The position numbers and the translations under genes are program-made. 64,000 nt of DNA from a virus (taxonomy: Duplodnaviria > Caudoviricetes). The notes beneath the pieces were generated by a model that saw only the letters and a program-made list of their open reading frames with translations, had not been told where the DNA came from and did no database searches. Numbering within the stretch: the first letter of the stretch is position 1; each line of letters opens with the position of its first letter. The DNA lies in IMG/VR virus record IMGVR_UViG_3300039076_000082, positions 1 through 64,000 of that record; one strand, written 5' to 3'. Positions 1,540-39,285 of this stretch are shown piece after piece.

Positions 1540-1568
1540 TTGACAATACTAACGCATTGCGTTATAAT
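1540..1568 (+). promoter_or_regulatory. Consensus sigma70 early promoter with palindrome AACGCATTGCGTT (1551-1563)
   Basis: TTGACA-17-TATAAT. Confidence 0.9.
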
Positions 1569-1598
1569 AGCATTAAGAAACAAAACAATGAGGCGTTT

Positions 1599-1856
1599 AT
1601 GAATATCGATACTTGGACTAAACTTAACCAAAATATTAAAAGTATGATGATTAAAAATGGATTAACTGTTGAGGATATTTCATCAGAAGTTACAGGTGAG
1701 CTAAATGAATTAGCTATAAAAACAGAATACGGCTGGGAAACTTTATTCTACGGTAACAAAGAAGCATTTATAACCGTAAACGTTGATGGTATTGATTATT
1801 CATTCAGTTACGTTATAGATACTTACGGAGATAAAAGTTACATTGTCAATTTCTAA
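1599..1856 (+). CDS. Hypothetical early protein
   Basis: ATG 1599 after GAGG; the track's 1557 start lies inside the promoter. Confidence 0.7.
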   Translation: MNIDTWTKLNQNIKSMMIKNGLTVEDISSEVTGELNELAIKTEYGWETLFYGNKEAFITVNVDGIDYSFSYVIDTYGDKSYIVNF

Positions 1857-1882
1857 CTAATACTAATTAAGAGGAGAATTTT

Positions 1883-1989
1883 ATGAGTCAATATTTAACA
1901 GAGTAATTTGCGGTCAAACACTAAACGAACTAATAAAAATTATTGAGTCGAATAAGTATTGCGTAAACTATTTAAGATATGAGGTTTAA
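1883..1989 (+). pseudogene. Small frameshifted ORF (or assembly error)
   Basis: GAGGAG SD + ATG gives only MSQYLTE*, but a shifted frame reads FNRVICGQTLNEL...RYEV* up to the next gene. Confidence 0.35.
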
Positions 1990-1991
1990 TC

Positions 1992-2321
1992 ATGGGACCG
2001 TATTGTAAACATTGTGATAGTAGATGCTTTATTCCTACTACTAAAGATGATTTTATTAAAACTGATTTAAAAGCAACTTGCGAAAAAGGAATATTACAAG
2101 ATCTAGACGCTACTTATATTCCTATTTTAAAAGACAATAAACGCATATTTTGGCTATTAGAGGTTAAACCTTATGATGAGTATAGCCTAGCACTAGAATT
2201 AGTAAATAATGAGCCAATGCCTATTGAGATTAAAACGTCAGAGTTATCTTACATAATAAATTTATCAAATTTAGAATTATACAATATGCTAGGAAGAAGA
2301 GATTATTATAGATTAAAATAA
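1992..2321 (+). CDS. Hypothetical protein with N-terminal CxxC
   Basis: 109 aa, GAGG SD. Confidence 0.7.
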   Translation: MGPYCKHCDSRCFIPTTKDDFIKTDLKATCEKGILQDLDATYIPILKDNKRIFWLLEVKPYDEYSLALELVNNEPMPIEIKTSELSYIINLSNLELYNMLGRRDYYRLK

Positions 2322-2324
2322 TTA

Positions 2325-2353
2325 TTGACAATATTAACACAATGCGTTATACT
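2325..2353 (+). promoter_or_regulatory. Early promoter with operator-like AACACAATGCGTT
   Basis: TTGACA-17-TATACT. Confidence 0.85.
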
Positions 2354-2383
2354 TTAATTAGAACTACAACAAAGGATAGCAAA

Positions 2384-2584
2384 ATGAAATATCAAGGTAA
2401 AGTTCTTTGGACTAGCTTAAAAGACGGTAACGGTATTATTTTAGTTAACGATAAAGTCGAAGTCTATTTTGACAAGTCAGTAAGTAAACAGTTTCAAGAT
2501 ATGAAAAGACATGACCTAGTTGAGTTTGAAGTTAGACAAACAGGCGGTTGTAATTGTGCTTTTAATGTTGAGATAGTAGGATAG
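2384..2584 (+). CDS. Cold-shock-domain (OB-fold) protein, degenerate RNP motifs
   Basis: MKYQGKVLW..KDGNGII..VEVYFD..DLVEFEV..AFNV follows the CspA pattern; 66 aa from ATG 2384. Confidence 0.7.
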   Translation: MKYQGKVLWTSLKDGNGIILVNDKVEVYFDKSVSKQFQDMKRHDLVEFEVRQTGGCNCAFNVEIVG

Positions 2585-2587
2585 TTA

Positions 2588-2616
2588 TTGACGCATTGCA
2601 TTAATTCCTGTATACT
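2588..2616 (+). promoter_or_regulatory. Early promoter with operator-like GACGCATTGCATT
   Basis: TTGACG-17-TATACT. Confidence 0.8.
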
Positions 2617-2646
2617 GTTAATAGGACTACAACAGAGGATAATAAA

Positions 2647-2886
2647 ATGAACTTAGACAATAACAAATTCTTTCTAACTTTTGCAGAATGTTTAAAAAAG
2701 AATATGATAGCTAATCCTGAGCTATACAGTAAGTCTTATGAAGAAACTTTACAAGCTTATAAAGCTATTAAATTTGAAAAGTTTACTTACGACAAAGATA
2801 GTAAATCGATTAAAGATACTTGTAAAATACTAGGAATTAAAAATACTTATTTAGCAATTGATACTTACTTGAAAAACAATCAATAA
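2647..2886 (+). CDS. Hypothetical protein
   Basis: 79 aa, GAGG SD. Confidence 0.7.
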   Translation: MNLDNNKFFLTFAECLKKNMIANPELYSKSYEETLQAYKAIKFEKFTYDKDSKSIKDTCKILGIKNTYLAIDTYLKNNQ

Positions 2887-2897
2887 TAGAGGTAGTT

Positions 2898-3215
2898 ATG
2901 TATATTCGCAAAAAATTCGCATTAAAGAAAACTAGACTTCATAGTGATGATAGTTCGGATACAAAAGCTTATTGTGAAAAAGGTACAGTCTATTATCAAA
3001 TTAGCAACGGTACTATCGGAAAAGGTGCTAGAAGCTATAATATGAGCGAGAAAGCTATGCAAGAACTAATCAATAGCAAAGCTAGTAACTGGAATAAGAA
3101 CGGCTATATTGAGTTAGAAGAAGTTAAAAGTAATGTGATTCAATTTCCTAAAAAAGAAGTAGAATATAGTATAGAGGCTGATAGGTTATTCACTTATGAC
3201 GATATTCCATTTTAG
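2898..3215 (+). CDS. Hypothetical protein with SSB-like C-terminal tail (YDDIPF)
   Basis: 105 aa, GAGG SD, terminal DDIPF. Confidence 0.7.
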   Translation: MYIRKKFALKKTRLHSDDSSDTKAYCEKGTVYYQISNGTIGKGARSYNMSEKAMQELINSKASNWNKNGYIELEEVKSNVIQFPKKEVEYSIEADRLFTYDDIPF

Positions 3216-3218
3216 TAG

Positions 3219-3246
3219 TTGACTTATTGACGCAATATGTTATTAT
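3219..3246 (+). promoter_or_regulatory. Early promoter with operator-like GACGCAATATGTT
   Basis: TTGACT-16-TATTAT; second TTGACG at 3227. Confidence 0.65.
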
Positions 3247-3275
3247 CAATTAACGGCTAACAAACGGAGCATAAT

Positions 3276-3791
3276 ATGAAATATGAAACACTTCAAAAAT
3301 TACTTAAGTTCTCAATTTCAAAAGATGAAACTAGACCTTATTTGAACGGAGTCTATTTTGACTCTAAACTTGAGCAAGCTGTATCAACGGATGGATACAT
3401 TATGACAGTTTCAAAACGCTTATATGTTCCAGAATTTGCCGATAAGATTATCAACTTCAATGATATGAATGTTTGTGATAGAGAGTTTTTAAAATATAGC
3501 TCAATTCTTCCTAGAAAGTTTGAAGGTGAGTTTATGGTAACTATCCCTAAAGCTGATCCAATTATTAAAGGTAAAAATGAAAGACAATATGGATTTTTTC
3601 TTAAAAAAGATCAAACGTGGGAAATTGCAATCAATCCACCACAAGATATTATTTGTAAACTTAATCCTCATTTCCTTAAACCGTTGCAAGGATTGACCAT
3701 CAAAGTAAAATATAATGGTGAACTTAATCCTGTAGTATTTGAATTAGTCGAAGATGATACTATCTATGTTGTAATGCCTATTAAAGTTTAG
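3276..3791 (+). CDS. Truncated DNA polymerase III beta-clamp-like protein
   Basis: DETRPYLNGVYF, VSTDGY and terminal YVVMPIKV match DnaN segments DVRYYLNG, VATDGH and YVVMPMRL; only 171 aa. Confidence 0.8.
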   Translation: MKYETLQKLLKFSISKDETRPYLNGVYFDSKLEQAVSTDGYIMTVSKRLYVPEFADKIINFNDMNVCDREFLKYSSILPRKFEGEFMVTIPKADPIIKGKNERQYGFFLKKDQTWEIAINPPQDIICKLNPHFLKPLQGLTIKVKYNGELNPVVFELVEDDTIYVVMPIKV

Positions 3792-3802
3792 GAAGGTAGT
3801 TT

Positions 3803-3883
3803 ATGAGAGTAATAAGAAGTTACAAAACTAGGTGTCCTGATTGTGGTTCTAGGTTAGGAATAGACGAAAAATGTAGATGTTAG
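3803..3883 (+). CDS. Tiny Cys-rich peptide
   Basis: MRVIRSYKTRCPDCGSRLGIDEKCRC after an AGG/GAAGG SD. Confidence 0.35.
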   Translation: MRVIRSYKTRCPDCGSRLGIDEKCRC

Positions 3884-3894
3884 GAGTGTGATTT

Positions 3895-4311
3895 ATGTTT
3901 CAAATTACATTAAAAAGTGAAAAATACTTAAAGCGACTACCTGATAGATATTTTGATGGGAGCTATAATGTTTCAAAAAATCTTACTTTAAATGAAGCCA
4001 AGTCAGTTTTAAGTTATTTTAAGTTAGTTAAAATAGGAAACTTGTTATATAATGAAAATGAGACTGAAATAGTAGGGAATATTGAAAAAGTTGAACTAAA
4101 TATAAAAACTACTAAAAAAGATAAGTATATCAGATTAACTAGAGCTATTGTACCAGTAGAATTAGTGAGTCTATCCGAAATTGAAAAATCCCATATAATC
4201 AAAGTCAATGAGTATACATCAAATAAGACACAAGCCTCTGAAATATTGGGAATAACACTTAGAACATTATACAATAAAATAGAAGCTTACAACATACAAT
4301 GGAAAGATTGA
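3895..4311 (+). CDS. Protein with C-terminal Fis-type (HTH_8) helix-turn-helix
   Basis: NKTQASEILGITLRTLYNKI matches the NtrC/Fis HTH. Confidence 0.8.
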   Translation: MFQITLKSEKYLKRLPDRYFDGSYNVSKNLTLNEAKSVLSYFKLVKIGNLLYNENETEIVGNIEKVELNIKTTKKDKYIRLTRAIVPVELVSLSEIEKSHIIKVNEYTSNKTQASEILGITLRTLYNKIEAYNIQWKD

Positions 4312-4336
4312 CAAACTTAACATAGTGCGTTAATAT
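4308..4336 (+). promoter_or_regulatory. Early promoter with operator-like AACATAGTGCGTT
   Basis: TTGACA-17-TAATAT. Confidence 0.8.
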
Positions 4337-4363
4337 TAGTTAACAACTAATCGTGAGGTAGTT

Positions 4364-4630
4364 ATGAACTTTGAAGAAGCACTAACTAAAAAGCAATTAC
4401 TTGAATCAAAAGTTGATGAGTATTCGGATAAGTTGAGAGAATTAGTTGCTAATGACAGGAATAGTCTAGGATTGACTAGCGACTCAATAAAAAATGCCCT
4501 TGAATATAAAAGAACTAAACATAGCTACAATCAAGCTTTTAGAGAATTAAGAGAATTTAACGCATATTATGTAAAACAGTTTAAAGCTGAAATAGCAGAA
4601 CTAAGGAAAAGGAAGTATGACGCGGATTAA
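4364..4630 (+). CDS. Hypothetical helical protein
   Basis: 88 aa, GAGG SD. Confidence 0.7.
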   Translation: MNFEEALTKKQLLESKVDEYSDKLRELVANDRNSLGLTSDSIKNALEYKRTKHSYNQAFRELREFNAYYVKQFKAEIAELRKRKYDAD

Positions 4631-4991
4631 TTTGGTCAATCCAAAAGAATTATCACAACTTCATTTGATAGCGGAATATCGAGAGATATCTAGACTCCCT
4701 AAGAACTTAGATAAAAGTCTTAACCGTAAAGGTAAACCATTTTCATTAACTGAAATTCCTACCGAGTATACTCTAGGTAAAGGTCATGTCAAATTCTTTT
4801 TTTGTCGCATGCTATTCCTTAAAAAGCGTTATGAAGCTCTAATAGCTGAAATGCTGAGTCGAGGCTATAACCCTACATTCAGAGATAGCTCTATATTTGA
4901 AAACTGCCCTAAAGAGTTTTATAACGACTATACGCCGACTATTGAAGCTATTGAGATCAACCGTCAAAGAATTAAAGAACGTACTAAATAA
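4617..4991 (+). CDS. denV: Pyrimidine-dimer DNA glycosylase (T4 endonuclease V family)
   Basis: MTRINL...HLIAEYREISRL...LGKGHVKFF...LIAEMLSRG, closely following T4 DenV. Confidence 0.95.
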   Translation: MTRINLVNPKELSQLHLIAEYREISRLPKNLDKSLNRKGKPFSLTEIPTEYTLGKGHVKFFFCRMLFLKKRYEALIAEMLSRGYNPTFRDSSIFENCPKEFYNDYTPTIEAIEINRQRIKERTK

Positions 4992-4993
4992 TA

Positions 4994-5022
4994 TTGACAC
5001 ACCGCATAAATAATGCTACAAT
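4994..5022 (+). promoter_or_regulatory. Early promoter
   Basis: TTGACA-17-TACAAT; partial CGCA half-site in the spacer. Confidence 0.8.
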
Positions 5023-7322: not shown

Positions 7323-7496
7323 ATGATTACTAAGCTAATAGAGACAATTATTACTTTGCTATATGTTAGTGGTTCAACTTGTTTTTACTTAGCTTACATG
7401 ATGCTTACCTTTGTTTTCTTTGTCCCATTATACTTCTATGCTCAATTGGGAGCTTTCTACTATAGAGTGAGATATAAGCCGTGCCGATCAATTTAA
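7323..7496 (+). CDS. Small membrane protein
   Basis: GGAGG SD before ATG 7323; hydrophobic. Confidence 0.55.
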   Translation: MITKLIETIITLLYVSGSTCFYLAYMMLTFVFFVPLYFYAQLGAFYYRVRYKPCRSI

Positions 7497-13805: not shown

Positions 13806-14612
13806 TTGGCTAATTTTACTGTAATTAAAAAGTTTGAAAAGAAAACTAAAATAAGATGTGTATGTGGAAATGAATTATATATAAAAAATCGACTAGAATT
13901 AAAAAATACATGCAACTGTGAAATTAAAGATTCGAGATCCGAAAATTTTAATACTTCCTATAATATTTATAAAAATGGAGCAAAAGAAAGGAATTTAGAG
14001 TTTAAAATAACACCAGAACATTTTGAACATTTAATAAATAGTATATGTTTTTATTGTGATGAAAAACCTAGAATGTATTCAGAAGGTGTGGAGCGTATGG
14101 GAATAGATAGAACTTGTAACAGTGAGGGCTATCTTCCGCACAACGTAATATCTTGTTGCACTAGGTGTAATATTGGTAAACGTGATATGGATTTAGGTGA
14201 GTATGAAGAGTATATTTCAAAAGTCTATCATAACCTTAAAAAATATAGAGAATTTGTCGATAAAGATCCACAAAGAAACTTATTTCTTTTCAAAAGAGGA
14301 TATATGTTAACTGGTTCACACGTAGTTAGACTTTTGGACATGGGGCTTATCAGTAAAGAAGAAGTTCGTTACGACTTATCTAAAACATTGTTTAATAATC
14401 AATACGAGTCTAATGGGTTTGTCAATATGCTAATAGATATTGTAAGTACCTACGCTGGTACTAAAAAAGCTAAAAGTAAAGTAATGAAAACACGTTACGA
14501 CAAAATAGAAAGAATATATGCTGATTTTTTGGAAAATAAAAGAATAGATCATCAATTGGTGTGTCGTTTGATTTTAAATAAAGAATTAATTCTTTTTGAC
14601 AAAGGTAAATAA
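13806..14612 (+). CDS. HNH homing-type endonuclease
   Basis: CVCGN, CFYC...GIDR..N..GY...NVISCCTRCN..K; TTG start after AAGGAG. Confidence 0.85.
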   Translation: MANFTVIKKFEKKTKIRCVCGNELYIKNRLELKNTCNCEIKDSRSENFNTSYNIYKNGAKERNLEFKITPEHFEHLINSICFYCDEKPRMYSEGVERMGIDRTCNSEGYLPHNVISCCTRCNIGKRDMDLGEYEEYISKVYHNLKKYREFVDKDPQRNLFLFKRGYMLTGSHVVRLLDMGLISKEEVRYDLSKTLFNNQYESNGFVNMLIDIVSTYAGTKKAKSKVMKTRYDKIERIYADFLENKRIDHQLVCRLILNKELILFDKGK

Positions 14613-14674: not shown

Positions 14675-16579
14675 TTGTCACAAATCAAAACGAAAATTGC
14701 TAAACTAAACCAAACAAAGGTAAACCTCAAGAAAAAGTTTATTGGGATCGACCGTCAAATTGACCAAATTGTTAACTCAATTAAAGCGTTCATACTCTTT
14801 CCTGAGACATTAAATAAGCCTCTTATCATTAACCTTTGGGGAATTACTGGTACGTTTAAAACATCAGTTTTGCGCGAGCTAATCAAAGAATTAGAACTTA
14901 CTTCTCGTTTTGTTGAAGTAGACTCAAGAGACTTGCAAAGTGGTATCACTCCTTTATTAGGACACCCTAATCCTGATAAAAAAGATATTATTATGCCGTG
15001 TGTATTCTTATTGGACGAGTTTCAAAACACTAGAACTATTGATATCCACGGTAATGATACGGAAAGAGCTGACGGTTTAGCAGAACTATTCTCGTTTCTA
15101 TCTGATGGGAAAATTGTAATTAATCGTAATCAATACAAAGTAGAACAAGTTTTATTTCTACTGAATAGAATTAAAATTGATGTAGATTCAGTAGTTCAAC
15201 AAATTGAAGATTTCTACGAGCAAAGAGCTACTTCTAGCCTATCTAAACCTACAGTAGTAGGTCAAAAAACATCAAATGACTCTAGTGAGAAGCCAGAAAG
15301 AAAACAAGTATCTTTTGAAACTAAAATGTTTTACTTTTACGACTACTATATTGACAATATTGAAGCTCTAGTTGGTGCTGACTTTCTTCAAATCAAGTAT
15401 AAATCGCCACAAGATGCTCTATTAGCTTTAGCAGAAGCCTTAAAGGACTACGGACCTACTAAAGTATTCGACCTATCTAAATCGTTAGTTTTCGTAGCAG
15501 GTAACATTGATGAAGCATTTGCTGGACTAACTTCTATTACCGATAACGATTACTTCTCTCCTGACGACTTTTATGCGCTATCTTCAAAAGTAAACTTCAA
15601 TCAAGTTAAGCAAGCTTTATTCTACCGTTTTAAGCCGGAACAAGTAAGTAGGCTAGGTAGTAACCACGTCATCTTCCCAAGCTTTAATACGGCTATGTAT
15701 AAGGCTCTAATTACGTCTCTAAACAAGCGCTCTATCTCGAAATACAAAGATCTTGGCATCAAAATCAAGATTGACAAGTCAATTGACGAATTTATTTTGA
15801 AGCACAACGCTATACCTTCTCAGGGAGCTAGAAGTGTGTTATCTGCACATGAGTACTTAGTTGATAGCAACCTATCGGAAATTATCGCTGAGACAATGAT
15901 TAGAGGCGGTAAAGAAGTACTAATTGGAGTAGTAAACAATCGAGTCCACTTAATTAACGACAAGAAAAAAGTAATCAAAAAGAATATTGACATTATCGAT
16001 TTGACTGTGCTAAAGAACTATGAAGATAAACGAACAAACCATACTATTTCGGTTCATGAAGCATCTCATGCTGTAGTCTCAATTGCTTTATTAGGAGAAT
16101 TGCCGTCAACGATTAAAGTAAGAATGAATGATAGTAGTATAGGTGGTTATTGCAAAATAGAAGGATTCCCAGAACTTGCGAATAGACGTGATTATATTAA
16201 CTTTATCGCTATAGCATTAGCTGGTTATGTCGGAGAGTTAATTGATAATAATTACAACATTGATATGGTTTCGGTAGGAAGTTCTAGCGATATTGTAAAA
16301 GCTACTGGTATTGCTACAGACTTAGTTAAGGTATTAGGTTTAGGGATTAGTGGAGATATAACAGCTAGAGGTGTATCTGGTATGGTAGCCGATGTAATGC
16401 TAAGAGAAAATAACAAAGAAGTAGAAGAAGAGATTGAAAATATTGTAAATGAAGGATTTTTATTAGCGCATTTGGTGCTGGTTACAATGCAAAAAGAACA
16501 TAGATTATTGACGGAAGTTTTGAAAAAGAATGTCACTATTAAACCTAATCAGATTAAACATATTTTTTATAGGAGTTGA
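14675..16579 (+). CDS. Soluble AAA+ ATPase (Clp-like) fused to FtsH-type M41 Zn peptidase
   Basis: GITGTFKT (variant Walker A), FLLDEFQ, FKPEQVSRLG; C-terminal HEASH, LAGYVGE, GSSSDIVKAT; no TM segment. Confidence 0.8.
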   Translation: MSQIKTKIAKLNQTKVNLKKKFIGIDRQIDQIVNSIKAFILFPETLNKPLIINLWGITGTFKTSVLRELIKELELTSRFVEVDSRDLQSGITPLLGHPNPDKKDIIMPCVFLLDEFQNTRTIDIHGNDTERADGLAELFSFLSDGKIVINRNQYKVEQVLFLLNRIKIDVDSVVQQIEDFYEQRATSSLSKPTVVGQKTSNDSSEKPERKQVSFETKMFYFYDYYIDNIEALVGADFLQIKYKSPQDALLALAEALKDYGPTKVFDLSKSLVFVAGNIDEAFAGLTSITDNDYFSPDDFYALSSKVNFNQVKQALFYRFKPEQVSRLGSNHVIFPSFNTAMYKALITSLNKRSISKYKDLGIKIKIDKSIDEFILKHNAIPSQGARSVLSAHEYLVDSNLSEIIAETMIRGGKEVLIGVVNNRVHLINDKKKVIKKNIDIIDLTVLKNYEDKRTNHTISVHEASHAVVSIALLGELPSTIKVRMNDSSIGGYCKIEGFPELANRRDYINFIAIALAGYVGELIDNNYNIDMVSVGSSSDIVKATGIATDLVKVLGLGISGDITARGVSGMVADVMLRENNKEVEEEIENIVNEGFLLAHLVLVTMQKEHRLLTEVLKKNVTIKPNQIKHIFYRS

Positions 16580-17118
16580 ATTTGACAGAAGAGATTTGGA
16601 AAGATATTCGGGGATTTGAAGGATATTATCAAATATCTAATCATGGAAGGGTTAGGTCTTTAGATAGAATTATTCCGACCAAGAAATTTAATATAAAGAG
16701 AAAAGGTGAAGTAATGAGTACTTCGCTCAATACTAAAGGTTACCCTCATATTAGATTATGTAAGAATGGTAAAAGAGAAACATTTAGAGTTCACAGACTA
16801 GTGGCACAAACATTTTTACCTAATCCCAATAATGATGAAATTGTAAACCATAAAGATTCAAATAAGACTAATAATAATCTAGACAATCTTGAATGGTGTA
16901 GCGAAATGGACAATAGACAACACGCAAGAAAAATTTTCAACGATACAGCCTACGGAGAAGCCTGTAATCTTAGTAAATTAACTGAGCAACAAGTTAGAGA
17001 AATAAGAGCCAATGGAAAAAATGGTAGAACTAATGAGCAAATAGCTAAGTTATATAATGTATCTCATGAAACTATCAGGAATGTTTTAAACGGTAATTCT
17101 TGGAAACATATATTATAG
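16576..17118 (+). CDS. NUMOD4-HNH homing endonuclease
   Basis: EIWKDIRGFEGYYQISNHGRVRS; VHRLVA...VNHKDSNKTNN...NLEW; start may be TTG 16582. Confidence 0.92.
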   Translation: MNLTEEIWKDIRGFEGYYQISNHGRVRSLDRIIPTKKFNIKRKGEVMSTSLNTKGYPHIRLCKNGKRETFRVHRLVAQTFLPNPNNDEIVNHKDSNKTNNNLDNLEWCSEMDNRQHARKIFNDTAYGEACNLSKLTEQQVREIRANGKNGRTNEQIAKLYNVSHETIRNVLNGNSWKHIL

Positions 17119-21736: not shown

Positions 21737-24280
21737 ATGACTAAAACTACTGATACTATTACAACTATAGAAGAACTAGACGAGCTAACAGAATATTTAG
21801 TGAATCCTGTAAACAATGATACTATTATTGAAATTAGCGATAGTCATGTTGAAACCGATAAGTTAATTATCAGCTTTAACGGAAGTATTGCTAAAGAAGC
21901 TGTAATCAGAATGACTGATATCGTAATGGGAGAGATCGAATGGGTAGAAGAATCTTGTAATGGACCGATTGACACATTAACAATTGATGCACTTTTCGGT
22001 AAAGATAAACGTGCTAATATTGTAAATATCGCAATCAAAAATGATTTACTTTATTTATTCTATCTTGATGGTTCAAGCGAAACTATTCCATGTAAATATT
22101 TTATTTTATCTTCAACTAAATATGACTCTAAGTTTGAAAGACTTGAAGGTGAAACATTTTATAAATATATTAGATACTTTAATAATTTAGAATCTTATAA
22201 TTTATTTAAGAAAAATAATTACCATTCAATTTCATCAAAAGTGCTTCATGCCATTAATGATCCATTACAGCAACAATTATATTTAACAGGAATAACTTTA
22301 TATAAAGATTTAGAATTTAAGTCATTAAGAATTTTAGGGTTCGATATCGAAACTAACGGTGTCATTAAAGATAAAAATTCGTCAATTAAAGTTATTACTA
22401 ATACTCTCTGGGATGGAAATAGTCTAACTAGAACAATCTTTAGAGAAGATCACTATAAGAATGAAGGAGAAATGTTAGTAGCTTGGTCCAACTATGTCCA
22501 AGAAGTAAACCCTTCAGTAATGACTGGTCATAATATATTTGGATTCGATTTACCTTATATGATGCACGTTGCTAAATTGAATAAAGTAGAATTAAATATA
22601 AGTAGAGACGGTGGCTCCCCAATTGTCGCAAAAAGAGCTAGAAAATATCGTGTCGATGGAAGTCAAACTTGGGACTTTTTTAATATTGAAGTCTTCGGAA
22701 GAGATATTATTGATGGTATGTTCTTAGCAGTAAAATATGATGTTGGACGAAACTTCTCTAGTTGGGGACTAAAATCTATTATTGAAGCTTTAGGGCTAGT
22801 TAAAGAAGGAAGGCAATTCTATGATGCATCTAAAATTGGAGAAAACTGGAGTGACTTAGTCGAAAGAGAAAAGATTGTTGAATATTGTAAAGATGATGGT
22901 GACGATTCTATCAGTATCTTTAATACTATGACTCCTGCGTTCTTTTATTTAGCTAGGTCCATTCCTAATACGCTCCAAAACATTATTAATAGTGCTTCTG
23001 GAAGCTGGTTAAATAGCATTATAGTTAGAGCCTATATGCAGAATGGTAAGTCTATAGCAAAGCCTAATGAGCCTACAACCGTTACTGGGGGCATCTCGTT
23101 TGGTATCCCCGGCATCCATAAAAATGTGAAAAAAATAGATATTGTCTCAATGTATCCCTCAATAATGAGAGAATGGAAAATTTTTGACGATAAAAAAGAC
23201 CCTGATGCTATTTTTAATAAAATGGTAGAGTGCTATACTTTAGATCGACTAAAACATAAAAAACTTTTTAAAGAAACTAAAAATAGCTACCATGATGATA
23301 TGCAAGCTTCCTTAAAAATTGCAATTAACTCTTTATACGGATTGAATGCAACTAGTGGACTCAATTACAATAACTTTCAAAATGCTGATAAAATTACAAC
23401 ATTAGGAAGGCTAATTTTAAGAGCTAGTACAATGTGGGCATCAGGTGAAGACGTTGACTTTTGGTTTCCAGAATATAAAAACCTTGAGCATGATAATCAA
23501 TATTTCGATTTATTAAAATTAAAAGATTTTACTTCTCATAATTTTTTAATTGTCAATGGTGATACAGATTCAATCTCTTTTAAAAAGAAAGATGAAAGTC
23601 CGTTTACAGAAGAAGAAACTAAAACTTTATTAGACGAAATTAATAACATTCTTCCCAATTTAATTACATTTGAGGATGATGGGACTTTTCCAGTTGTAGT
23701 AGTTCTTAAAGCTAAAAACTATGTTTTATATGATGGAAAGAAAGTTAAGTTTAAAGGTTCAAGTTTACGTTCATCTCGCCAAGAACCTGCACTTAAAGAA
23801 ATGATGGACCGTATTCTTAAAGACTGCCTAGTTTTTGAAAAAGAAGATTACGTTAAAGTTTACAACGAATATATTAGGGAAATATTAGATATTAAAGATA
23901 TATCTCGTTGGGCTAAAAAAGAATCAGTAACAGATACAATGTTTGATAGCGATAGACTGACTGAAACAAAGAAAGTTGAAGCTATCTTAGGTATGGGCGC
24001 AAAAGTTGGCGACAAAGTATTTTTATACAACGCTTTAGATGGAGAGGAACCAGTTTTAGATAAAGATGGTAATGAAAAGAAAGATCGAAAAGGTAATACT
24101 AAAATGCAACCTAAACGAATTTTAAAGCATATCAGTAATTTTAATAATGATTATGAGCTTGACCATTATCTAAAAAGATGCTACGATTCAATTAGTATCT
24201 TAGAAAATGTAATAGATATGGAAAAAATTATTGATTATACTAAAAAAAAGAATAAGGAACTTCTTGAGCAGATAAAATGA
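21737..24280 (+). CDS. polB: Family B DNA polymerase with 3'-5' exonuclease
   Basis: FDIET, GHNIFGFDLPY, YCKDD; DIVSMYPS, KIAINSLYG, NGDTDS. Confidence 0.95.
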   Translation: MTKTTDTITTIEELDELTEYLVNPVNNDTIIEISDSHVETDKLIISFNGSIAKEAVIRMTDIVMGEIEWVEESCNGPIDTLTIDALFGKDKRANIVNIAIKNDLLYLFYLDGSSETIPCKYFILSSTKYDSKFERLEGETFYKYIRYFNNLESYNLFKKNNYHSISSKVLHAINDPLQQQLYLTGITLYKDLEFKSLRILGFDIETNGVIKDKNSSIKVITNTLWDGNSLTRTIFREDHYKNEGEMLVAWSNYVQEVNPSVMTGHNIFGFDLPYMMHVAKLNKVELNISRDGGSPIVAKRARKYRVDGSQTWDFFNIEVFGRDIIDGMFLAVKYDVGRNFSSWGLKSIIEALGLVKEGRQFYDASKIGENWSDLVEREKIVEYCKDDGDDSISIFNTMTPAFFYLARSIPNTLQNIINSASGSWLNSIIVRAYMQNGKSIAKPNEPTTVTGGISFGIPGIHKNVKKIDIVSMYPSIMREWKIFDDKKDPDAIFNKMVECYTLDRLKHKKLFKETKNSYHDDMQASLKIAINSLYGLNATSGLNYNNFQNADKITTLGRLILRASTMWASGEDVDFWFPEYKNLEHDNQYFDLLKLKDFTSHNFLIVNGDTDSISFKKKDESPFTEEETKTLLDEINNILPNLITFEDDGTFPVVVVLKAKNYVLYDGKKVKFKGSSLRSSRQEPALKEMMDRILKDCLVFEKEDYVKVYNEYIREILDIKDISRWAKKESVTDTMFDSDRLTETKKVEAILGMGAKVGDKVFLYNALDGEEPVLDKDGNEKKDRKGNTKMQPKRILKHISNFNNDYELDHYLKRCYDSISILENVIDMEKIIDYTKKKNKELLEQIK

Positions 24281-24942
24281 TTATTTGCGGTGTTTATCAA
24301 ATTAAAAATTTAGTAACTGGCGACTTATATATCGGCAGTTCTAATGATATTTTAAAAAGATTTAAAGATCATAAGAGAAAATTATTAATTAAAAGGCATC
24401 ATTCTAGATTTTTACAACTTGCTTATAATAAATATTCACTAATTAATTTTGAATTTACAATAATATGTAAATGTGATAAATTTTTAAAATTGTATATTGA
24501 GCAACTTTATATAAATTCAATGAATCCTAAATACAATACCGCCAAATCTAGTTGTGCTCCAATGGAAGGGAGAAGACATTCAGAAGAACCCAAGTTAAAA
24601 TTTAAGAATAGAGTAGTTAGAAAAGGAAAAGATAGTCCAAGTTATGGTAAAAAATGGTCAGATGAATATAAGAAAAAATGGATAGAAATTAGGACTGGCG
24701 AAAAACGCTCAGAAGAATTCAGTAAAAAAGTTTCAAAAAAGAACATAGAAACTAATAGTATTAAGTATCTAAAGCCATATCATGAGACTAATCGAAAAAA
24801 GGTTAAAAGTTCTGATGGGAATGTATTTAAATCCTTACTAGAGTGTGCTAATTTTTATAATGTTAAAGTTGCTACAGTGTGTGACGTTTTAAAAGGAAGA
24901 AGTAAAACATTAAAACGAAAATTTATTTTAGAATATTGTTGA
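24277..24942 (+). CDS. GIY-YIG homing endonuclease with NUMOD3-like region
   Basis: GVYQIKN...YIGSS...RF..H...E..YI...YN; GRRHSEE..K. Confidence 0.92.
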   Translation: MIICGVYQIKNLVTGDLYIGSSNDILKRFKDHKRKLLIKRHHSRFLQLAYNKYSLINFEFTIICKCDKFLKLYIEQLYINSMNPKYNTAKSSCAPMEGRRHSEEPKLKFKNRVVRKGKDSPSYGKKWSDEYKKKWIEIRTGEKRSEEFSKKVSKKNIETNSIKYLKPYHETNRKKVKSSDGNVFKSLLECANFYNVKVATVCDVLKGRSKTLKRKFILEYC

Positions 24943-27358: not shown

Positions 27359-28387
27359 ATGAAAACAACTACTGAGCTACTCCGCTGGTTCTATAGCAAC
27401 TATCCTCGCTTAGTTGAGGAAATGAGAAACTGCGACCACAACTTATCCTACGATGAGCCCAATAGCTATCATTTAGAAGGCGATGTTTGGTGTCATGTTA
27501 TGATGATTCTGAAACAGATTCAACAAGCTAACTACTTGACTGATTATGATAAGTATATCTATTCAGTTATAGCTCTCTGTCACGATTTAGGGAAGCCTGA
27601 AGCGCGACAAATCAGAGACGGTAAAGTAACATTCTACAACCATGATGCTATTTCAGCATTTAAAGCTATCGAAGTACTAAATCACTTAGCACTTTCCCAA
27701 GAAGAAAAAGAAGTAATCTTTCAAACTATAGCTCACCATACTCAAGTATTCAGATTGACTCGTCAACAATTATTTGACAAGCTACTTGACGCTAAACTTA
27801 GAAATACTATAGAAACTTTTGGAGTATTCGACCATGATGGACGTTTTCATGATAATCAAGAAGTAGAAAAGTCTTATACTTTATGTGAAGATTTGGTAGT
27901 AAAATATAGCTCTCAGAACGCTCCTAAAACTGTTACTGTAATGGTAGGACTTCCTGCTAGTGGTAAATCTACTTATATTGAACAAAACGCTTCAGAAGGC
28001 TCGTTTATCGTATCTAGAGATAGGATTGTAGAAGACTTAGGAGACGGTATTACTTACTCTGAGAAGTGGTATAGTGCTAATCAAAAAGAAGTAGATGAAG
28101 TGCTTCAAGAAGTATTCAAGCAAGCCAAAAAAGAAAACGAAGTATTTGTCGATATGACCCATTTGAGTACTAAGTCTAGACGTAGAACTTTGTCGCATTT
28201 CGGTAAAGAGTGGAAGAAGAAGTGTGTGGTAGTACTACCAAGTTTGACCCAACTAACTAACAATAGCGAATATCGTAAAAATACTACTGGTAAATTTGTA
28301 TCGGATAGTGTAGTATTAGAAATGATGAGTAGGTTTAGCAGTCCTACTTATAGCGAAGGGTTCGATGAGATTGAGTGGAGATTTTAA
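27359..28387 (+). CDS. HD-Pnk end-healing enzyme (HD phosphoesterase + P-loop polynucleotide kinase)
   Basis: YHLEGDVWCH...CHDLGKP...FYNH; VMVGLPASGKST...SRD...VDMTH. Confidence 0.9.
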   Translation: MKTTTELLRWFYSNYPRLVEEMRNCDHNLSYDEPNSYHLEGDVWCHVMMILKQIQQANYLTDYDKYIYSVIALCHDLGKPEARQIRDGKVTFYNHDAISAFKAIEVLNHLALSQEEKEVIFQTIAHHTQVFRLTRQQLFDKLLDAKLRNTIETFGVFDHDGRFHDNQEVEKSYTLCEDLVVKYSSQNAPKTVTVMVGLPASGKSTYIEQNASEGSFIVSRDRIVEDLGDGITYSEKWYSANQKEVDEVLQEVFKQAKKENEVFVDMTHLSTKSRRRTLSHFGKEWKKKCVVVLPSLTQLTNNSEYRKNTTGKFVSDSVVLEMMSRFSSPTYSEGFDEIEWRF

Positions 28388-28419
28388 TATGGAAAAAAGT
28401 AAAACAAATAGTGGATTTA

Positions 28420-29031
28420 ATGCGTAGAATTGATCTAGTAGGGAAAAGAAAAGATAAGTTGGTGGTTATGTCTTTTTTAGAAAAGAGAGGAAAACATTTA
28501 TATTGGAAAGCGTTATGTGATTGTGGTAAGGAAAACAAAATATCTAGTACAAATTTTCTTCAAAAAGAAACTGCTTCGTGCGGTTGTACCAGAAATAAAA
28601 AAGCTAGCGATAGGTGGAAAGGTCAAAAAAGAAAAAATACACTACCTGAAGGAGAAGGATCATTATCTTGTTTAATAAATCAATATAAACAAGGGGCTAA
28701 ATTAAAAAATGTTCCTTTCTCTTTGAGTAGAGATGAATTTAGACAATTGACAAAAAGTAACTGTTACTACTGCGGAAGAAAACCGGAAAATATCATAAAA
28801 GGTAAAAGAAGTAATGGTGAATATGTCTATAATGGAATTGATCGCATAAATTCAGATTTAGGTTATTCATATTCTAATTGTGTTACATGTTGCGTTAAGT
28901 GTAATACATCAAAAATGGATTATTCTTTTTCAGAATTTATCAATTGGGCTGAAAAATTAGCAAATAATTTATTGAAAATGGGAGATATCCAATTAGATGA
29001 AGAAGTTTATTTAAAACTGGAAAAATTATAA
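28420..29031 (+). CDS. HNH homing-type endonuclease
   Basis: MRRIDLVGKR..LVV..W...CDCG; CYYCG...NGIDRINS..GYS.SNCVTCC..CN; ATG 28420 preferred over track GTG 28375. Confidence 0.88.
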   Translation: MRRIDLVGKRKDKLVVMSFLEKRGKHLYWKALCDCGKENKISSTNFLQKETASCGCTRNKKASDRWKGQKRKNTLPEGEGSLSCLINQYKQGAKLKNVPFSLSRDEFRQLTKSNCYYCGRKPENIIKGKRSNGEYVYNGIDRINSDLGYSYSNCVTCCVKCNTSKMDYSFSEFINWAEKLANNLLKMGDIQLDEEVYLKLEKL

Positions 29032-29039
29032 AAAGTATA

Positions 29040-29068
29040 TTGACAGAATAATATAAATAAAGTATTAT
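29040..29068 (+). promoter_or_regulatory. Strong sigma70-type promoter for the ncRNA-tRNA-ligase transcript
   Basis: TTGACA-17-TATTAT. Confidence 0.8.
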
Positions 29069-29074
29069 CAATTT

Positions 29075-29165
29075 GTCTAGGTAAGAATATGATTTAGATC
29101 GGATTCGAGCCAAAAGAGAAGTTAGAGTATTGAATCATTCTCGTAAACAATACTTCCACCTAGAC
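29075..29165 (+). ncRNA. Putative ~90-nt structured RNA
   Basis: Begins at the predicted TSS; GTCTAGGT/ACCTAGAC terminal stem, AGTATTG/CAATACT hairpin, GG-ATTCGAG-CC mini hairpin. Confidence 0.5.
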
Positions 29166-29175
29166 ATTTTATATA

Positions 29176-29250
29176 TCCGAGTTCGTTTATGTAGTAAGAC
29201 GGGAGATTGTGATTCTCCTCAAAAGGGTGCAAATCCCTTACTTGGAACCA
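29176..29250 (+). tRNA. tRNA, anticodon GUG (His), atypical acceptor end
   Basis: TCCGAGT/ACTTGGA acceptor, GTTT/AGAC D stem, GGAGA-TTGTGAT-TCTCC, AAGGG-TGCAAAT-CCCTT, encoded CCA. Confidence 0.85.
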
Positions 29251-29262
29251 TTAAGGAGCATT

Positions 29263-30429
29263 ATGTCATTTAAAACTTGTTTCACTAAAATCTTAGCAGT
29301 TAATCCTCATCCGGATACTGAGACTACAGGATTAGATATCGCAACAGTTTACGGATTTAACATTGTTGTGAAACGCGGATCAATGAAAGTTGGAGATATC
29401 GTTTACTATATCCCTATTGACTCAGTATTACCTCAAGATTTAGAAGAACTTATTTTTCCACCGACAGGGAAAGTAAAGTTATCAAATTCAAGAGTACGTC
29501 AAATTAGACTTCGTAAATTCCCATCGGAAGGTCTGTTAGTGGAAGCCGATACTATCCACTCCTTCATGGTAGCACAAAGAGCTTTACGCCCACAAATTAC
29601 TTCTAATGCGATGTTAGAGCAAGATACTAGCCATATTTTAGGTATTAAAAAATTTGAACCACCTGCTCCAAAAGAAACTATTTCAGGTAAACCTATTACT
29701 TCTAAAAAAAGATTAGCTGAACACCCTCAATTTCATAAGTATAATGGGTTAGATGCACTAAAATGGGGTAATCCTTTTACCGAAGACGAACAAGTATCTA
29801 TTCAACTCAAAATGCACGGAACAAATGCTAGATTTGGTAAATTAGCAACAAAACCCAAAAACCTATTTCAGCGTATTTTGAACCTACTTAAATTATTACC
29901 AGAGTATGAGACTAGATACGGTAGCAACAATGTGGATATTACTCTTAAAAACGGCGCTAGTGGGTTCTACGACACTGACGTATATGGTACGGCTTTTAAA
30001 GCTTGTAATGCTGATACTAAAGTAAAAGAGAATGAGATGATATTTGGAGAAATTGTAGGTGAAGGTATTCAGAAGAATTACCACTATGGACACAAGACTC
30101 CACATTTTGTATTATTTGATGTCAAAGTATTTACTGATAAAAACGATTTAAAAGGTCGTTGGTTAACTCCTTCAGAAGTAGAAATTTATGCTAAAGAAAG
30201 AGGATTTGAGATGGTTCCTGTGCTATATAAAGGCTTTTATGACAAAGCTACTATGGAATCATTGATCTCAGGAGTAGATCCTTATTACCCTCCACATAAA
30301 ATTAGAGAAGGTATTGTTATTAAATCTGAGAGTAACTATAATGATCCAATGAGTAGTGCTGGTAAGAAAGCTAGAAAGGTTATTTCACCAGAATACTTGG
30401 ATGATAAGTCAAATACCGATTTACACTAA
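29263..30429 (+). CDS. RNA ligase, DRB0094/Rnl5 family
   Basis: N-terminal OB module (HPD...VGD..YYIPIDSVLP), KMHGTN (motif I), FGEIVG, FVLFDV, REGIVIK; AAGGAG SD before ATG 29263. Confidence 0.92.
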   Translation: MSFKTCFTKILAVNPHPDTETTGLDIATVYGFNIVVKRGSMKVGDIVYYIPIDSVLPQDLEELIFPPTGKVKLSNSRVRQIRLRKFPSEGLLVEADTIHSFMVAQRALRPQITSNAMLEQDTSHILGIKKFEPPAPKETISGKPITSKKRLAEHPQFHKYNGLDALKWGNPFTEDEQVSIQLKMHGTNARFGKLATKPKNLFQRILNLLKLLPEYETRYGSNNVDITLKNGASGFYDTDVYGTAFKACNADTKVKENEMIFGEIVGEGIQKNYHYGHKTPHFVLFDVKVFTDKNDLKGRWLTPSEVEIYAKERGFEMVPVLYKGFYDKATMESLISGVDPYYPPHKIREGIVIKSESNYNDPMSSAGKKARKVISPEYLDDKSNTDLH

Positions 30430-32943: not shown

Positions 32944-33855
32944 ATGAAGAATAAATACCAAGATAGAATAGGATCTATTATTAGAGGTTGTCTAGTATTA
33001 GAATGTTTTAAAAAAGACAATATACAAAATCCTTATTTTAAAGTAAAATGCAAATGTGGTAATATTTTTACAATAGCTAGTACTACTTTATGTAATAAAG
33101 CTTATTCAAATAAAGATTCTAATTGTGGGTGTATTGTTAGAGTAACGTCTAATGGTAAAAAAGATGGTAGGATAATTCCTGAGAATAATATAGGTAAAAC
33201 AATTAGACAATGTAAAATATTAAGCTATATTCCTAATTTACAAAAACCAAAAGATAAAAGTTCAGGTAAATATGAGTGCGTTTGTACTTGTGGAAATACT
33301 TTTATTATCTCTCATAGTCATTTATTTAAAAAGCAATTAAAGAACATTAGAGCTAATTGCGGATGCTTCAGAGAAGAGCCGAAAGAATACAAAAGAGAGT
33401 ACGATTCTGCAACATATCATAGACTTTATCAACATAAAAAATATACTACCATTCGTAGAAATTTAGAATTTTCTTTATCTGAAGAACAATTCATTAATAT
33501 ATCAAAAAAGCCGTGCATATATTGTGAAAAAGTGACATTAAGGAACTCTTATATAAAAGTAGAGGATACCTTTGGTTCCAATAAAGGAAAAACTGGAGAA
33601 TTAATTCTTAGTAATATAAAGGGAGATAGATTAAAGAATGTAGATAAGTATACTGTACCATGTTCAGGTATAGATAGAATAGATAATAGTAAAGGGTATA
33701 TAGTAGATAATTGTGTACCATGTTGCACTTATTGTAACACCATAAAAGGTACTAGAACTGTTGAAGAGTTTTACAAAAGAGTAGAAGATCTTGCACCAAC
33801 TCATGAACAGTGTGCTAAAATCTTATCAGTCAAAAGAAAACGTGAGAAAAAATAA
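32944..33855 (+). CDS. HNH homing-type endonuclease with duplicated CxCG N-terminal modules
   Basis: CKCGN / CTCGN; CIYC...GIDRIDNSKGY..DNCVPCC..CN..K. Confidence 0.88.
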   Translation: MKNKYQDRIGSIIRGCLVLECFKKDNIQNPYFKVKCKCGNIFTIASTTLCNKAYSNKDSNCGCIVRVTSNGKKDGRIIPENNIGKTIRQCKILSYIPNLQKPKDKSSGKYECVCTCGNTFIISHSHLFKKQLKNIRANCGCFREEPKEYKREYDSATYHRLYQHKKYTTIRRNLEFSLSEEQFINISKKPCIYCEKVTLRNSYIKVEDTFGSNKGKTGELILSNIKGDRLKNVDKYTVPCSGIDRIDNSKGYIVDNCVPCCTYCNTIKGTRTVEEFYKRVEDLAPTHEQCAKILSVKRKREKK

Positions 33856-34818: not shown

Positions 34819-35082
34819 ATGAAATGGGTAAAATGGTTAATTGATTGGTGGATAGATTTTGATCCTGTATATTATGAACCTTTAGTAAAGGTTACAGATC
34901 GTTACTGTAAAGGTTCTCAACATGAGTTTCCTCGTTATGTGACTTACAATAGTGTTATAGGAGCTAAAGATACCGATTTTTGTCAGTGTCGTAAATATCG
35001 TGCTAAAGAGTATTTCGATTTACAGATTTCAGAAATGAGAGAATTGTTATACGGTAAAAATGAACATACAACTAAAATGTAA
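34819..35082 (+). CDS. Hypothetical protein
   Basis: 87 aa. Confidence 0.6.
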   Translation: MKWVKWLIDWWIDFDPVYYEPLVKVTDRYCKGSQHEFPRYVTYNSVIGAKDTDFCQCRKYRAKEYFDLQISEMRELLYGKNEHTTKM

Positions 35083-35332
35083 ATATTGTGATTCTGTCAT
35101 TGAAGTACCGTTAAAGTGGGCTATTGATAATCAAAGAGTTTTTTGCAATTTCTGCTGTAAATCCTTTGACGTATCAGTTCAAAGTGCTCCAGACGAAGCC
35201 AAACAAGACCATTCTGCTGTAGAACAAGAAGTACAATCTATAGTTAACAAAGATATCGAATCAGAAGAAGCGTTATATATCGCATCCGATGAAGACGACC
35301 AATGGAACTTTTATGACGGATTACCATTTTAG
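35060..35332 (+). CDS. Zn-ribbon protein with acidic tail ending DGLPF
   Basis: CKYC...CNFC; D/E-rich C-terminus. Confidence 0.65.
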   Translation: MNIQLKCKYCDSVIEVPLKWAIDNQRVFCNFCCKSFDVSVQSAPDEAKQDHSAVEQEVQSIVNKDIESEEALYIASDEDDQWNFYDGLPF

Positions 35333-35338
35333 GAGATT

Positions 35339-35803
35339 ATGAATAAAGTAATACTATTTCCCGAATATAAAAACGAAGCTATAGTAAAACCTTTTCTGTA
35401 CGATCTTTATAGCGATAAGAAACTTGCGACCACTTACTTCAACAATATTACTAGACCTAATAATGAAACTGAAGCTAGACAGTATGTTGACGATATACTA
35501 AGTTGGCAAGCTTATAAAGGCTACATCATACTATACGAAGGTATAATGGTAGGAGAAGTTGGTTACTTAGCTAACAGTCCCAATCCATTAAACGTAGTAA
35601 TCAGAGAACAGTTCCAAGGTAAAGGAATAGCTAAAGAAGCCATTAAACAAATAATGGCGCTTTACCCAAATAAAACATTTACAGCTACTATTCTATCTGA
35701 TAATATAGCTTCTATAAGCTTGTTTAAAAGCTTAGGGTTTGTTAAAACCGGAAGAGACGATTACTATCAACTGGATATCTACGAGTATAATTATGAGCTA
35801 TAA
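35339..35803 (+). CDS. GNAT acetyltransferase (RimJ/RimL-like)
   Basis: FQGKGIA (Q/RxxGxG/A), DNIASISLFKSLGF. Confidence 0.88.
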   Translation: MNKVILFPEYKNEAIVKPFLYDLYSDKKLATTYFNNITRPNNETEARQYVDDILSWQAYKGYIILYEGIMVGEVGYLANSPNPLNVVIREQFQGKGIAKEAIKQIMALYPNKTFTATILSDNIASISLFKSLGFVKTGRDDYYQLDIYEYNYEL

Positions 35804-38841: not shown

Positions 38842-39285
38842 ATGAACAATTTAAGTTTTTTACAGAAAGCTATAGAAATGATGGAAAATGACTCAAGATT
38901 AGTACTTTGTGGCAGTTTAGCTTTAATCTTATCTAAGAATATACCAGATAGAGAAGTAAATGATTTAGATTTTGTCTTCATTGATGCTCCATCTAAGTTT
39001 AATTTAACTAATCATTATAAAGCAAGAGAAGATCATATTTATGAACAAGAAGGTTATGTTTGCTACAAAACGTATGTTTCTCCTCATGGAAATCATGCCA
39101 ACATTTTTGTATTTGATGATCATAAGTCAATTTTAATTGAAGAATTGACTATATTTGGTAAAACTATTCTTATTCAAAATCCAGAACAAATGTTACAATA
39201 TAAAAAATTATACGATAGACCAAAAGATAGAAAAGATTTAGGTATTGAAGAAAAAGTTTTTACTTCAGATGATATCCCATTTTAG
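38842..39285 (+). CDS. Minimal nucleotidyltransferase (GS...DxD; RxKD..D) with DDIPF tail
   Basis: LCGSLAL...VNDLDFV...DRPKDRKDL...SDDIPF. Confidence 0.75.
   Translation: MNNLSFLQKAIEMMENDSRLVLCGSLALILSKNIPDREVNDLDFVFIDAPSKFNLTNHYKAREDHIYEQEGYVCYKTYVSPHGNHANIFVFDDHKSILIEELTIFGKTILIQNPEQMLQYKKLYDRPKDRKDLGIEEKVFTSDDIPF

Follow-up and report, generated by a model that had tools for sequence, protein, structure and literature searches.

This locus raises the question of what a phage does with a protein that carries the partner-binding pocket segments of the bacterial sliding clamp DnaN and yet is only 171 aa long. The window analyzed here (~31% G+C) covers positions 1-64000 of a virus record of 84,955 bp that is rated as complete. 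The gene in question (3276..3791, + strand; an ATG start and 171 codons plus stop) sits 3.3 kb in from the left end, among a series of small genes on the + strand. An earlier note on this DNA had picked out three motifs in the product, which we refer to as the mini-clamp (P0001), and these are present as described at residues 17-25 (DETRPYLNG), 36-43 (VSTDGYIM) and 164-171 (YVVMPIKV). A Shine-Dalgarno sequence (GGAG; 3266..3269, +) is situated 6 nt before the ATG, preceded by a sigma70-like promoter (3219..3246, +) with TTGACT and TATTAT hexamers 16 nt apart and a TG ahead of the -10, giving a 10/12 match with an extended -10. Near-consensus sigma70 promoters are found ahead of almost every small early gene (at 1540, 2325, 2588, 3219, 4308 and 4994, all within 1540-5022, +), and the spacers of five early promoters contain a 13-bp palindrome-like motif, of which the mini-clamp copy is the most degenerate. 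The note had called the mini-clamp promoter an early operator-type promoter; the promoter itself stands and the operator fares less well, as the candidate site (3229-3241) has three mismatches to the palindrome AACGCATTGCGTT and is the weakest of the five, the other four early promoters having this type of palindrome in common, and the 15 motif copies in the window do not stand out from the 10.5 +/- 3.75 expected by chance. Directly 3' of the gene there is a 26-codon ORF (3803-3883, +) with GGAAGG upstream, whose CPDC...CRC pattern may form a mini zinc ribbon.

Searches with the single mini-clamp sequence fall short of the curated family thresholds. In Pfam, PF02767 scores 25.5 bits against a cut-off of 27 (E 1.8e-5, over residues 10-48 only) and PF00712 and PF02768 give no match, and TIGR00663 scores 34.4 bits against a curated cut-off of 137.65 bits. 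NCBIfam has no dedicated family for the mini-clamp, PADLOC gives no match, and tblastn of P0001, P0024 and P0036 against 50,697 phage records finds none either; PHROG 947 ('processivity factor') gives a sub-threshold match to the single sequence, at 7e-9. An exhaustive HMMER search reveals at least 120 family clusters at 50% identity, nearly all of them 165-200 aa long, aligning end-to-end and having two deletions in common, with 16 closer relatives at 34-58% identity. A family profile (A1) built from an alignment of 77 members matches solved beta clamps in the PDB (E 1.1e-17) in one alignment that begins with domain II and extends to the C-terminus, and hhalign of the family profile against Escherichia coli DnaN (from NC_000913) pairs mini-clamp residues 4-171 with DnaN residues 136-366 at 97% probability. 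The equivalences (mini-clamp=E. coli) include R20=R152, L23=L155, T38=T172, G40=G174, Y41=H175, I42=R176, M43=L177, M167=M362 and P168=P363, and place the three motifs on DnaN R152/L155, T172-L177 and M362-P363, exactly the positions that had been proposed. The mini-clamp is a true, heavily trimmed homologue of DnaN domains II and III. We note that PHROG 3007 ('RusA-like Holliday junction resolvase') matches 55 of the 77 members and PHROG 6615 ('DNA polymerase') 32 of them, so the family is already present in databases under names that are uninformative or wrong; for a clamp-derived family, both of these labels look wrong.

The trimming has a specific pattern. Domain I is absent, and in the alignment E. 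coli DnaN residues 195-228, 266-270, 299-313 and 327-330 have no counterpart. Mini-clamp residues 1-46 (3276..3413, +) correspond to the first half of DnaN domain II, with a helix at 3-12 and strands at 26-29, 34-38 and 42-46 in the AF2 model, and include pocket residues R20, L23, T38, G40, Y41, I42 and M43. Residues 47-83 (3414..3524, +) span the deletion scar, a predicted dimer contact (49-66) and the domain II-III connector; the missing E. coli segment 195-228 is most of the second half of domain II, its junction falling near mini-clamp residues 58-61, and the connector sequence REFLKYSSILP corresponds to E. coli GRFPDYRRVLP and contains pocket residues L72, S76 and I77. Residues 84-171 (3525..3788, +) are a trimmed domain III with pocket residues N130, F133, L150, V165, M167, P168, I169 and K170, in which the first inner helix is replaced by a loop (90-105) with no predicted helix. 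The interface of the beta ring pairs I78/F106 with I272/L273, and K74, R96, R103 and R105 with E298-E304 (PMC11139829). In the mini-clamp, I96-I97 align with I272-L273, the 299-313 deletion removes E300, E301, E303 and E304, and the position aligned to E298 remains. With no domain I and with most of its acidic interface residues deleted, the protein cannot form a canonical head-to-tail ring. The pI of the mini-clamp was considered as a sign of DNA binding and rejected, since its value of 7.65 is ordinary in this proteome.

All positions of the pocket itself have come through this reduction. Using the 18 residues of clamp-binding-motif (CBM) subsites I and II listed in PMC11139829, all 18 positions are aligned in the mini-clamp, with eight identical to E. 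coli, seven conservative changes and three non-conservative changes (R176 to I, P242 to L and R246 to S, the family consensus keeping P242). Identity to E. coli is higher in the pocket (8/18) than elsewhere (30/148; Fisher p 0.027), and so is column conservation over the 77 sequences (0.667 vs 0.419 for the rest; Mann-Whitney p 6e-6), a test that is partly dependent, as the pocket residues partly serve the fold as well, and as homologues are detected through their conserved columns. The three most conserved columns are G40, P168 and M167, all of them pocket residues, and the host-type residues are widely retained (R in 70/77 members, L in 64/77, T in 59/77, G in 77/77, M in 74/77 and P in 77/77), in proteins that are only 25-35% identical. 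The trimming thus looks to be organized around the pocket, and the idea of a minimal, ring-less clamp that keeps the pocket segments is borne out by the lack of domain I and of the 299-313 strand and the presence of all 18 pocket positions.

Structure prediction, proposed as a check in the earlier note, gives a clamp fold. Modeled by AF2 from its single sequence the mini-clamp has a pLDDT of 31.8, and with the A1 alignment a pLDDT of 95.6 and a pTM of 0.90. A VIA comparison places 163 of the 171 residues on beta-clamp domains II and III (Z 14.5, rmsd 3.1 A), and in the exhaustive structural comparison PCNA, gp45, 9-1-1 and UL44 come next at Z 7-10, with unrelated folds at Z 4.5 or less; gp45, PCNA and UL44 match over the full length of the model (Z 9.7 to 7.4), and Foldseek agrees with the clamp fold. 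The predicted helices are restricted to 3-12 and 131-137, plus a short 74-77 turn, compared with four in beta domains II and III.

Folding two copies together with A1 yields a score of 0.50 (0.50, 0.50 and 0.48 in the three runs), against 0.01 for the best control, with a partner pLDDT of 91 and 100% of the contacts agreeing in the three runs. In calibration, 20/30 proteins with a solved homo-pair structure and 1/23 with a single-chain structure attained this mark, counts that apply only approximately here because the A1 alignment was supplied. The predicted interface has two-fold symmetry (61 with 61, 59 with 64), involves residues 7, 10-11, 26, 35 and 49-66, and is centered on the domain II deletion scar, such that the second copy would cover the surface that normally lies under the missing half-domain. 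The dimer score might partly reflect the model's memory of how clamp half-domains pack, and conservation in the interface columns does not rise above background (0.416 vs 0.420). On this modeling the mini-clamp is probably a two-fold dimer; the option of a self-oligomerizing clamp, also raised in the earlier note, is supported by the modeling to the extent of a dimer.

The genome encodes a PolB (21737-24280), a DnaB-like helicase, a primase-like protein, ERF, a PD-(D/E)XK nuclease and denV. The mini-clamp gene is 18 kb from PolB, and DNA-metabolism genes are present in the early region too (denV at 4617 and a nuclease at 7481). No clamp loader (PF13177) is found in the genome (controls positive), nor any other DnaN-like region (the gp45 model search being uninformative, with silent controls), and no Pfam SSB is detected. 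No phage partner for the pocket is evident: a canonical CBM is missing from both ends and from the interior of PolB, and CBM-like sequences are not enriched in the phage ORFs (12 vs 8.1 +/- 2.9). The only terminal CBM-like sequences, both of them weak leads, are QAKLF at the N-end of an 86-aa ORF and QLDIY in a GNAT-type acetyltransferase (PHROG 1249; 35339-35803, +). The latter is eleven residues from the C-terminus, is the only near-terminal CBM-like sequence on an annotated phage protein, and is a possible pocket ligand.

The gene immediately upstream of the mini-clamp (2898-3215, +) ends in YDDIPF, which we take to be a bacterial SSB-tail motif, and this neighbor is accordingly a candidate for a second replisome-hub mimic next door. 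SSB-tail-like ends are present on three ORFs without an SSB-family match (YDDIPF at 2898-3215, YDGLPF at 35060-35332 and SDDIPF at 38842-39285, all +), and other mini-clamp loci also encode proteins ending in DDIPF or DDLPF (L006 13491-13748; L008 9251-9565 and 7401-8492; L010 14638-14991 and 6763-7185).

Several other features of the genome deserve mention. A 634-aa protein (14675-16579, +) combines an AAA-type region at its N-terminus with a Peptidase_M41 domain (FtsH-like) at its C-terminus; its gene sits between those of the DnaB-like helicase and an HNH homing endonuclease, and it provides the only AAA match in the genome. At least five genes resemble homing endonucleases of the HNH, endonuclease VII-like or GIY-YIG types (13806-14612, 16576-17118, 24277-24942, 28375-29031 and 32944-33855, all +); they are interspersed with replication and RNA-repair genes, one of them directly following PolB. 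The RNA-repair set (27359-30429, +) includes an HD/polynucleotide-kinase-like protein (27359-28387), a tRNA-His(GTG) (29176-29250) and an RNA ligase ORF; the GTG start listed for this ORF (29209) falls within the tRNA, and the actual start is probably downstream.

The position of the mini-clamp gene recurs in several unrelated phages. In five different phage backgrounds the family gene is the first to sixth gene of an early operon, and placement among the first early genes is seen in P0013 (from a syntenic phage), P0017, P0024, P0032 and P0033, with P0024 being the first gene after a divergent junction; no polymerase is encoded within the sequenced flanks of P0017, P0024, P0032 and P0033. A full-length family member is also present in a cultured phage, the 106-kb Lactobacillus phage LfeInf (Herelleviridae), in which gp123 (hhalign 97.45%) carries the annotation 'DNA polymerase III beta chain'. 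No gene separates it from the right terminal repeat, and the phage polymerase is ~75 kb away. As annotated, gp123 begins with MVATDSH (L014 10468-11106, record 104467-105105), which omits about 46 in-frame codons that encode the conserved helix and the SKKESRPVLKGV motif; there is no ATG, GTG or TTG in frame upstream, so a rare codon may serve as the start of gp123, or the record may be in error.

The mini-clamp at 3276-3791 is free-standing, unlike some relatives in which the module is part of a much larger protein. P0133, a Bacteroidales prophage protein whose gene adjoins MPTase-PolyVal and MuF_C genes, has a Kinase-PolyVal domain followed by a whole clamp module at residues 286-464 (97.4%), and P0088 is a 1576-aa LPD1 protein with a clamp module at residues 934-1108 (96.3%). 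Another LPD protein is among the BFVD fold matches of the mini-clamp. The module is autonomous, being present whole inside these polyvalent proteins.

The reading that we favor, tentatively and with slightly less than even confidence, is that the mini-clamp is a ring-less, probably dimeric mimic of the clamp as a hub, binding the clamp-binding motifs of host proteins. The protein retains those parts of the clamp from which the CBM pocket is built (half of domain II, the II-III connector and a trimmed domain III); it would be synthesized early, probably as a two-fold dimer with two pockets, and, away from the host ring, would bind motifs of the Q-phi-x-L-F type in host clamp partners. Candidate partners are clamp-loader delta, Pol III alpha, translesion polymerases, MutL/MutS, Hda and ligase, among others, and these would be either titrated, with host shut-off or a block to repair as the outcome, or redirected to phage DNA. 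Peptide binding, the identity of the partners, dimerization and the choice between sequestration and recruitment are what we infer here. The persistence of host-type pocket residues in members only 25-35% identical, in phages with differing replication modules and in polyvalent proteins makes a host motif a more likely ligand than the tail of one given phage polymerase, such persistence being expected if the ligand is a motif that the phage cannot change. The affinity of clamp-loader delta for monomeric beta is about 50-fold that for the ring (PMC11139829), and a ring-less pocket is therefore plausible as a sink. With three non-conservative changes in the pocket it is conceivable that its specificity has shifted, and it may now accept a non-canonical or phage-encoded motif. 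The early position is made less discriminating by the presence of denV and the nuclease in the same region.

This mimicry could extend to the family as a whole, whose members would be phage 'client-side' decoys, pocket-only copies of the host clamp that soak up or re-route CBM-bearing host proteins; we put this forward as a real possibility, albeit a doubtful one. Such decoys would be the first products of an infection or would enter the cell within injected polyvalent proteins, and their targets would be the clamp-loader delta wrench, the replicative and translesion polymerases and mismatch repair. Structurally, this would imply a two-fold dimer, or conceivably a ring of four chains with 222 symmetry, displaying pockets on both faces; to our knowledge no solved clamp is arranged in this way.

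The same protein could instead be a loader-independent, non-ring processivity or DNA-tethering subunit, in which a dimeric arc binds DNA and holds PolB through the pocket; we consider this unlikely, if a serious contender. An 85-kb genome with PolB, a DnaB-like helicase and a primase, in which no clamp loader or other clamp is detected, is what a loader-free processivity factor also predicts, but PolB lacks a canonical CBM at its ends or internally, it is encoded 18 kb away (~75 kb for the polymerase in LfeInf), and there is no polymerase in the sequenced flanks of four to five other loci. The predicted two-fold homodimer (0.50 vs 0.01 for the best control) and the full-length fold matches to gp45, PCNA and UL44 would suit an arc on DNA, as would a family median pI of 8.6 and the conserved lysines K92, K98 and K135, which are located where the inner, DNA-facing elements would be; however, half of the inner helices are lost, 42% of the phage ORFs are at least as basic as the mini-clamp, and monomeric beta binds DNA without conferring processivity (PMC11139829). 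Precedents exist in non-ring clamps and a basic polIII-beta homologue without a loader (PMC3201878) and in Rhc (PMC13648687), and relatives in cultured phages are annotated as processivity factors, but neither the embedding of the module in kinase- and LPD-type polyvalent proteins nor the conservation of a bacterial-type pocket across phages with different replication modules is readily accommodated.

The mini-clamp might also act on the host clamp itself rather than on its partners, pairing with a beta protomer or capping an opened ring through its domain III edge, poisoning closure of the ring and so stopping host replication. Of the native beta dimer interface, the half contributed by domain III has been kept, with I96-I97 aligned to the interface residues I272-L273 (PMC11139829), but residues 266-270 are deleted, the helix that bears I272/L273 is not predicted, and four of the five acidic interface residues (E300, E301, E303 and E304) are lost with 299-313. 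Phage proteins that inhibit beta are known, the Gp168-clamp complex (7evp) being among the structural matches; a poison of this kind would nonetheless leave unexplained why the pocket columns are the most conserved, and we regard it as very improbable. That the gene is a decaying, functionless fragment of a phage dnaN is suggested by a length less than half that of DnaN and by single-sequence scores below the Pfam and NCBIfam cut-offs, but is scarcely credible for a family that comprises at least 120 clusters at 50% identity, with nearly all members 165-200 aa long and sharing the same two deletions, in which motifs are strongly conserved, the fold is compact and confidently predicted, and the module is reused inside polyvalent proteins; the gene also has its own promoter and Shine-Dalgarno sequence. 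The family data effectively refute decay.

Comparison with known systems places the mini-clamp between several of them. It resembles DnaN (PF00712+PF02767+PF02768, TIGR00663) in its homology to domains II and III, its fold, its II-III connector motif and its pocket positions, among them R152, L155, T172, G174, N320, V360, M362 and P363. DnaN, however, is ~366 aa long with three domains, whereas the mini-clamp has 171 aa and lies below the curated family cut-offs; DnaN forms a head-to-tail two-subunit ring, which the mini-clamp cannot, and lines a closed DNA channel with helices and needs a clamp loader, whereas the mini-clamp has two predicted full helices and no loader is detected in the genome. 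Non-ring processivity factors with a clamp fold include HCMV UL44, a C-shaped dimer, and HSV UL42, a monomer. In phage PhiKZ, Rhc is a single clamp-derived subunit that holds the polymerase (PMC13648687). Like the mini-clamp, these three proteins have a clamp fold without a closed ring or a loader, and they suggest a possible mode of action for it; UL44 dimerizes about a two-fold axis, as is predicted for the mini-clamp. They differ in being PCNA-like, with two complete domains and a basic face that binds DNA, and in binding their own polymerase, whereas the mini-clamp conserves a bacterial-type pocket, no polymerase motif was found for it, and its structural similarity is Z 7.4 to UL44 and 6.0 to UL42 compared with 14.5 to beta clamps. 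Twort Gp168 (PDB 7evp) parallels the proposed role as an early phage attack on the clamp hub, but it binds the host ring, whereas the mini-clamp would mimic the pocket of the ring and bind its clients, and the folds are unrelated.

The closest precedents are short phage polIII-beta homologues with domains II and III only (5/12), which were reported without further analysis (Kazlauskas and Venclovas 2011, PMC3201878). Cultured phages contain short proteins annotated as 'polIII beta' or 'processivity factor', namely LfeInf gp123, Sam46 gp53 and those of Seurat and Suba, the last three being fold matches of the mini-clamp. All are like the mini-clamp in being phage-encoded, having only domains II and III and lacking a clamp loader, although several are longer (211-250 aa). 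The existence of such homologues was thus already noted in 2011. In the accessible literature we found no description of a reduction centered on the pocket, of the predicted dimer, of the position among early genes or of the fusions to polyvalent proteins, and no experimental work or structure for the mini-clamp family was found in the literature. A clamp module is not mentioned in the polyvalent-protein paper (Iyer et al. 2017, PMC5512222) or in an overview of jumbo phages (PMC7824862). The module behaves as a domain of polyvalent proteins in that it occurs in large proteins with LPD or PolyVal domains.

In the bacterial replisome, docking centers on the pocket of the beta clamp, which is also a drug target, and a large phage protein family seems to have reduced the sliding clamp to this pocket. 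Should the mini-clamp prove to bind CBMs, it would represent a new phage route to seizing or disabling host replication and repair and a ready minimal scaffold on which pocket ligands could be studied or screened; the 'DNA polymerase III beta' labels on short phage proteins incapable of forming a ring would also be accounted for. A loader-free processivity factor would be a bacterial-virus counterpart of herpesvirus UL44, derived from a bacterial rather than a PCNA-type clamp. Decoys, if that is what they are, would be the mirror image of the phage inhibitors that plug the clamp and constitute a class previously unrecognized, and the presence of the module in injected polyvalent proteins would add a part that targets the host replisome to the arsenal of those proteins.
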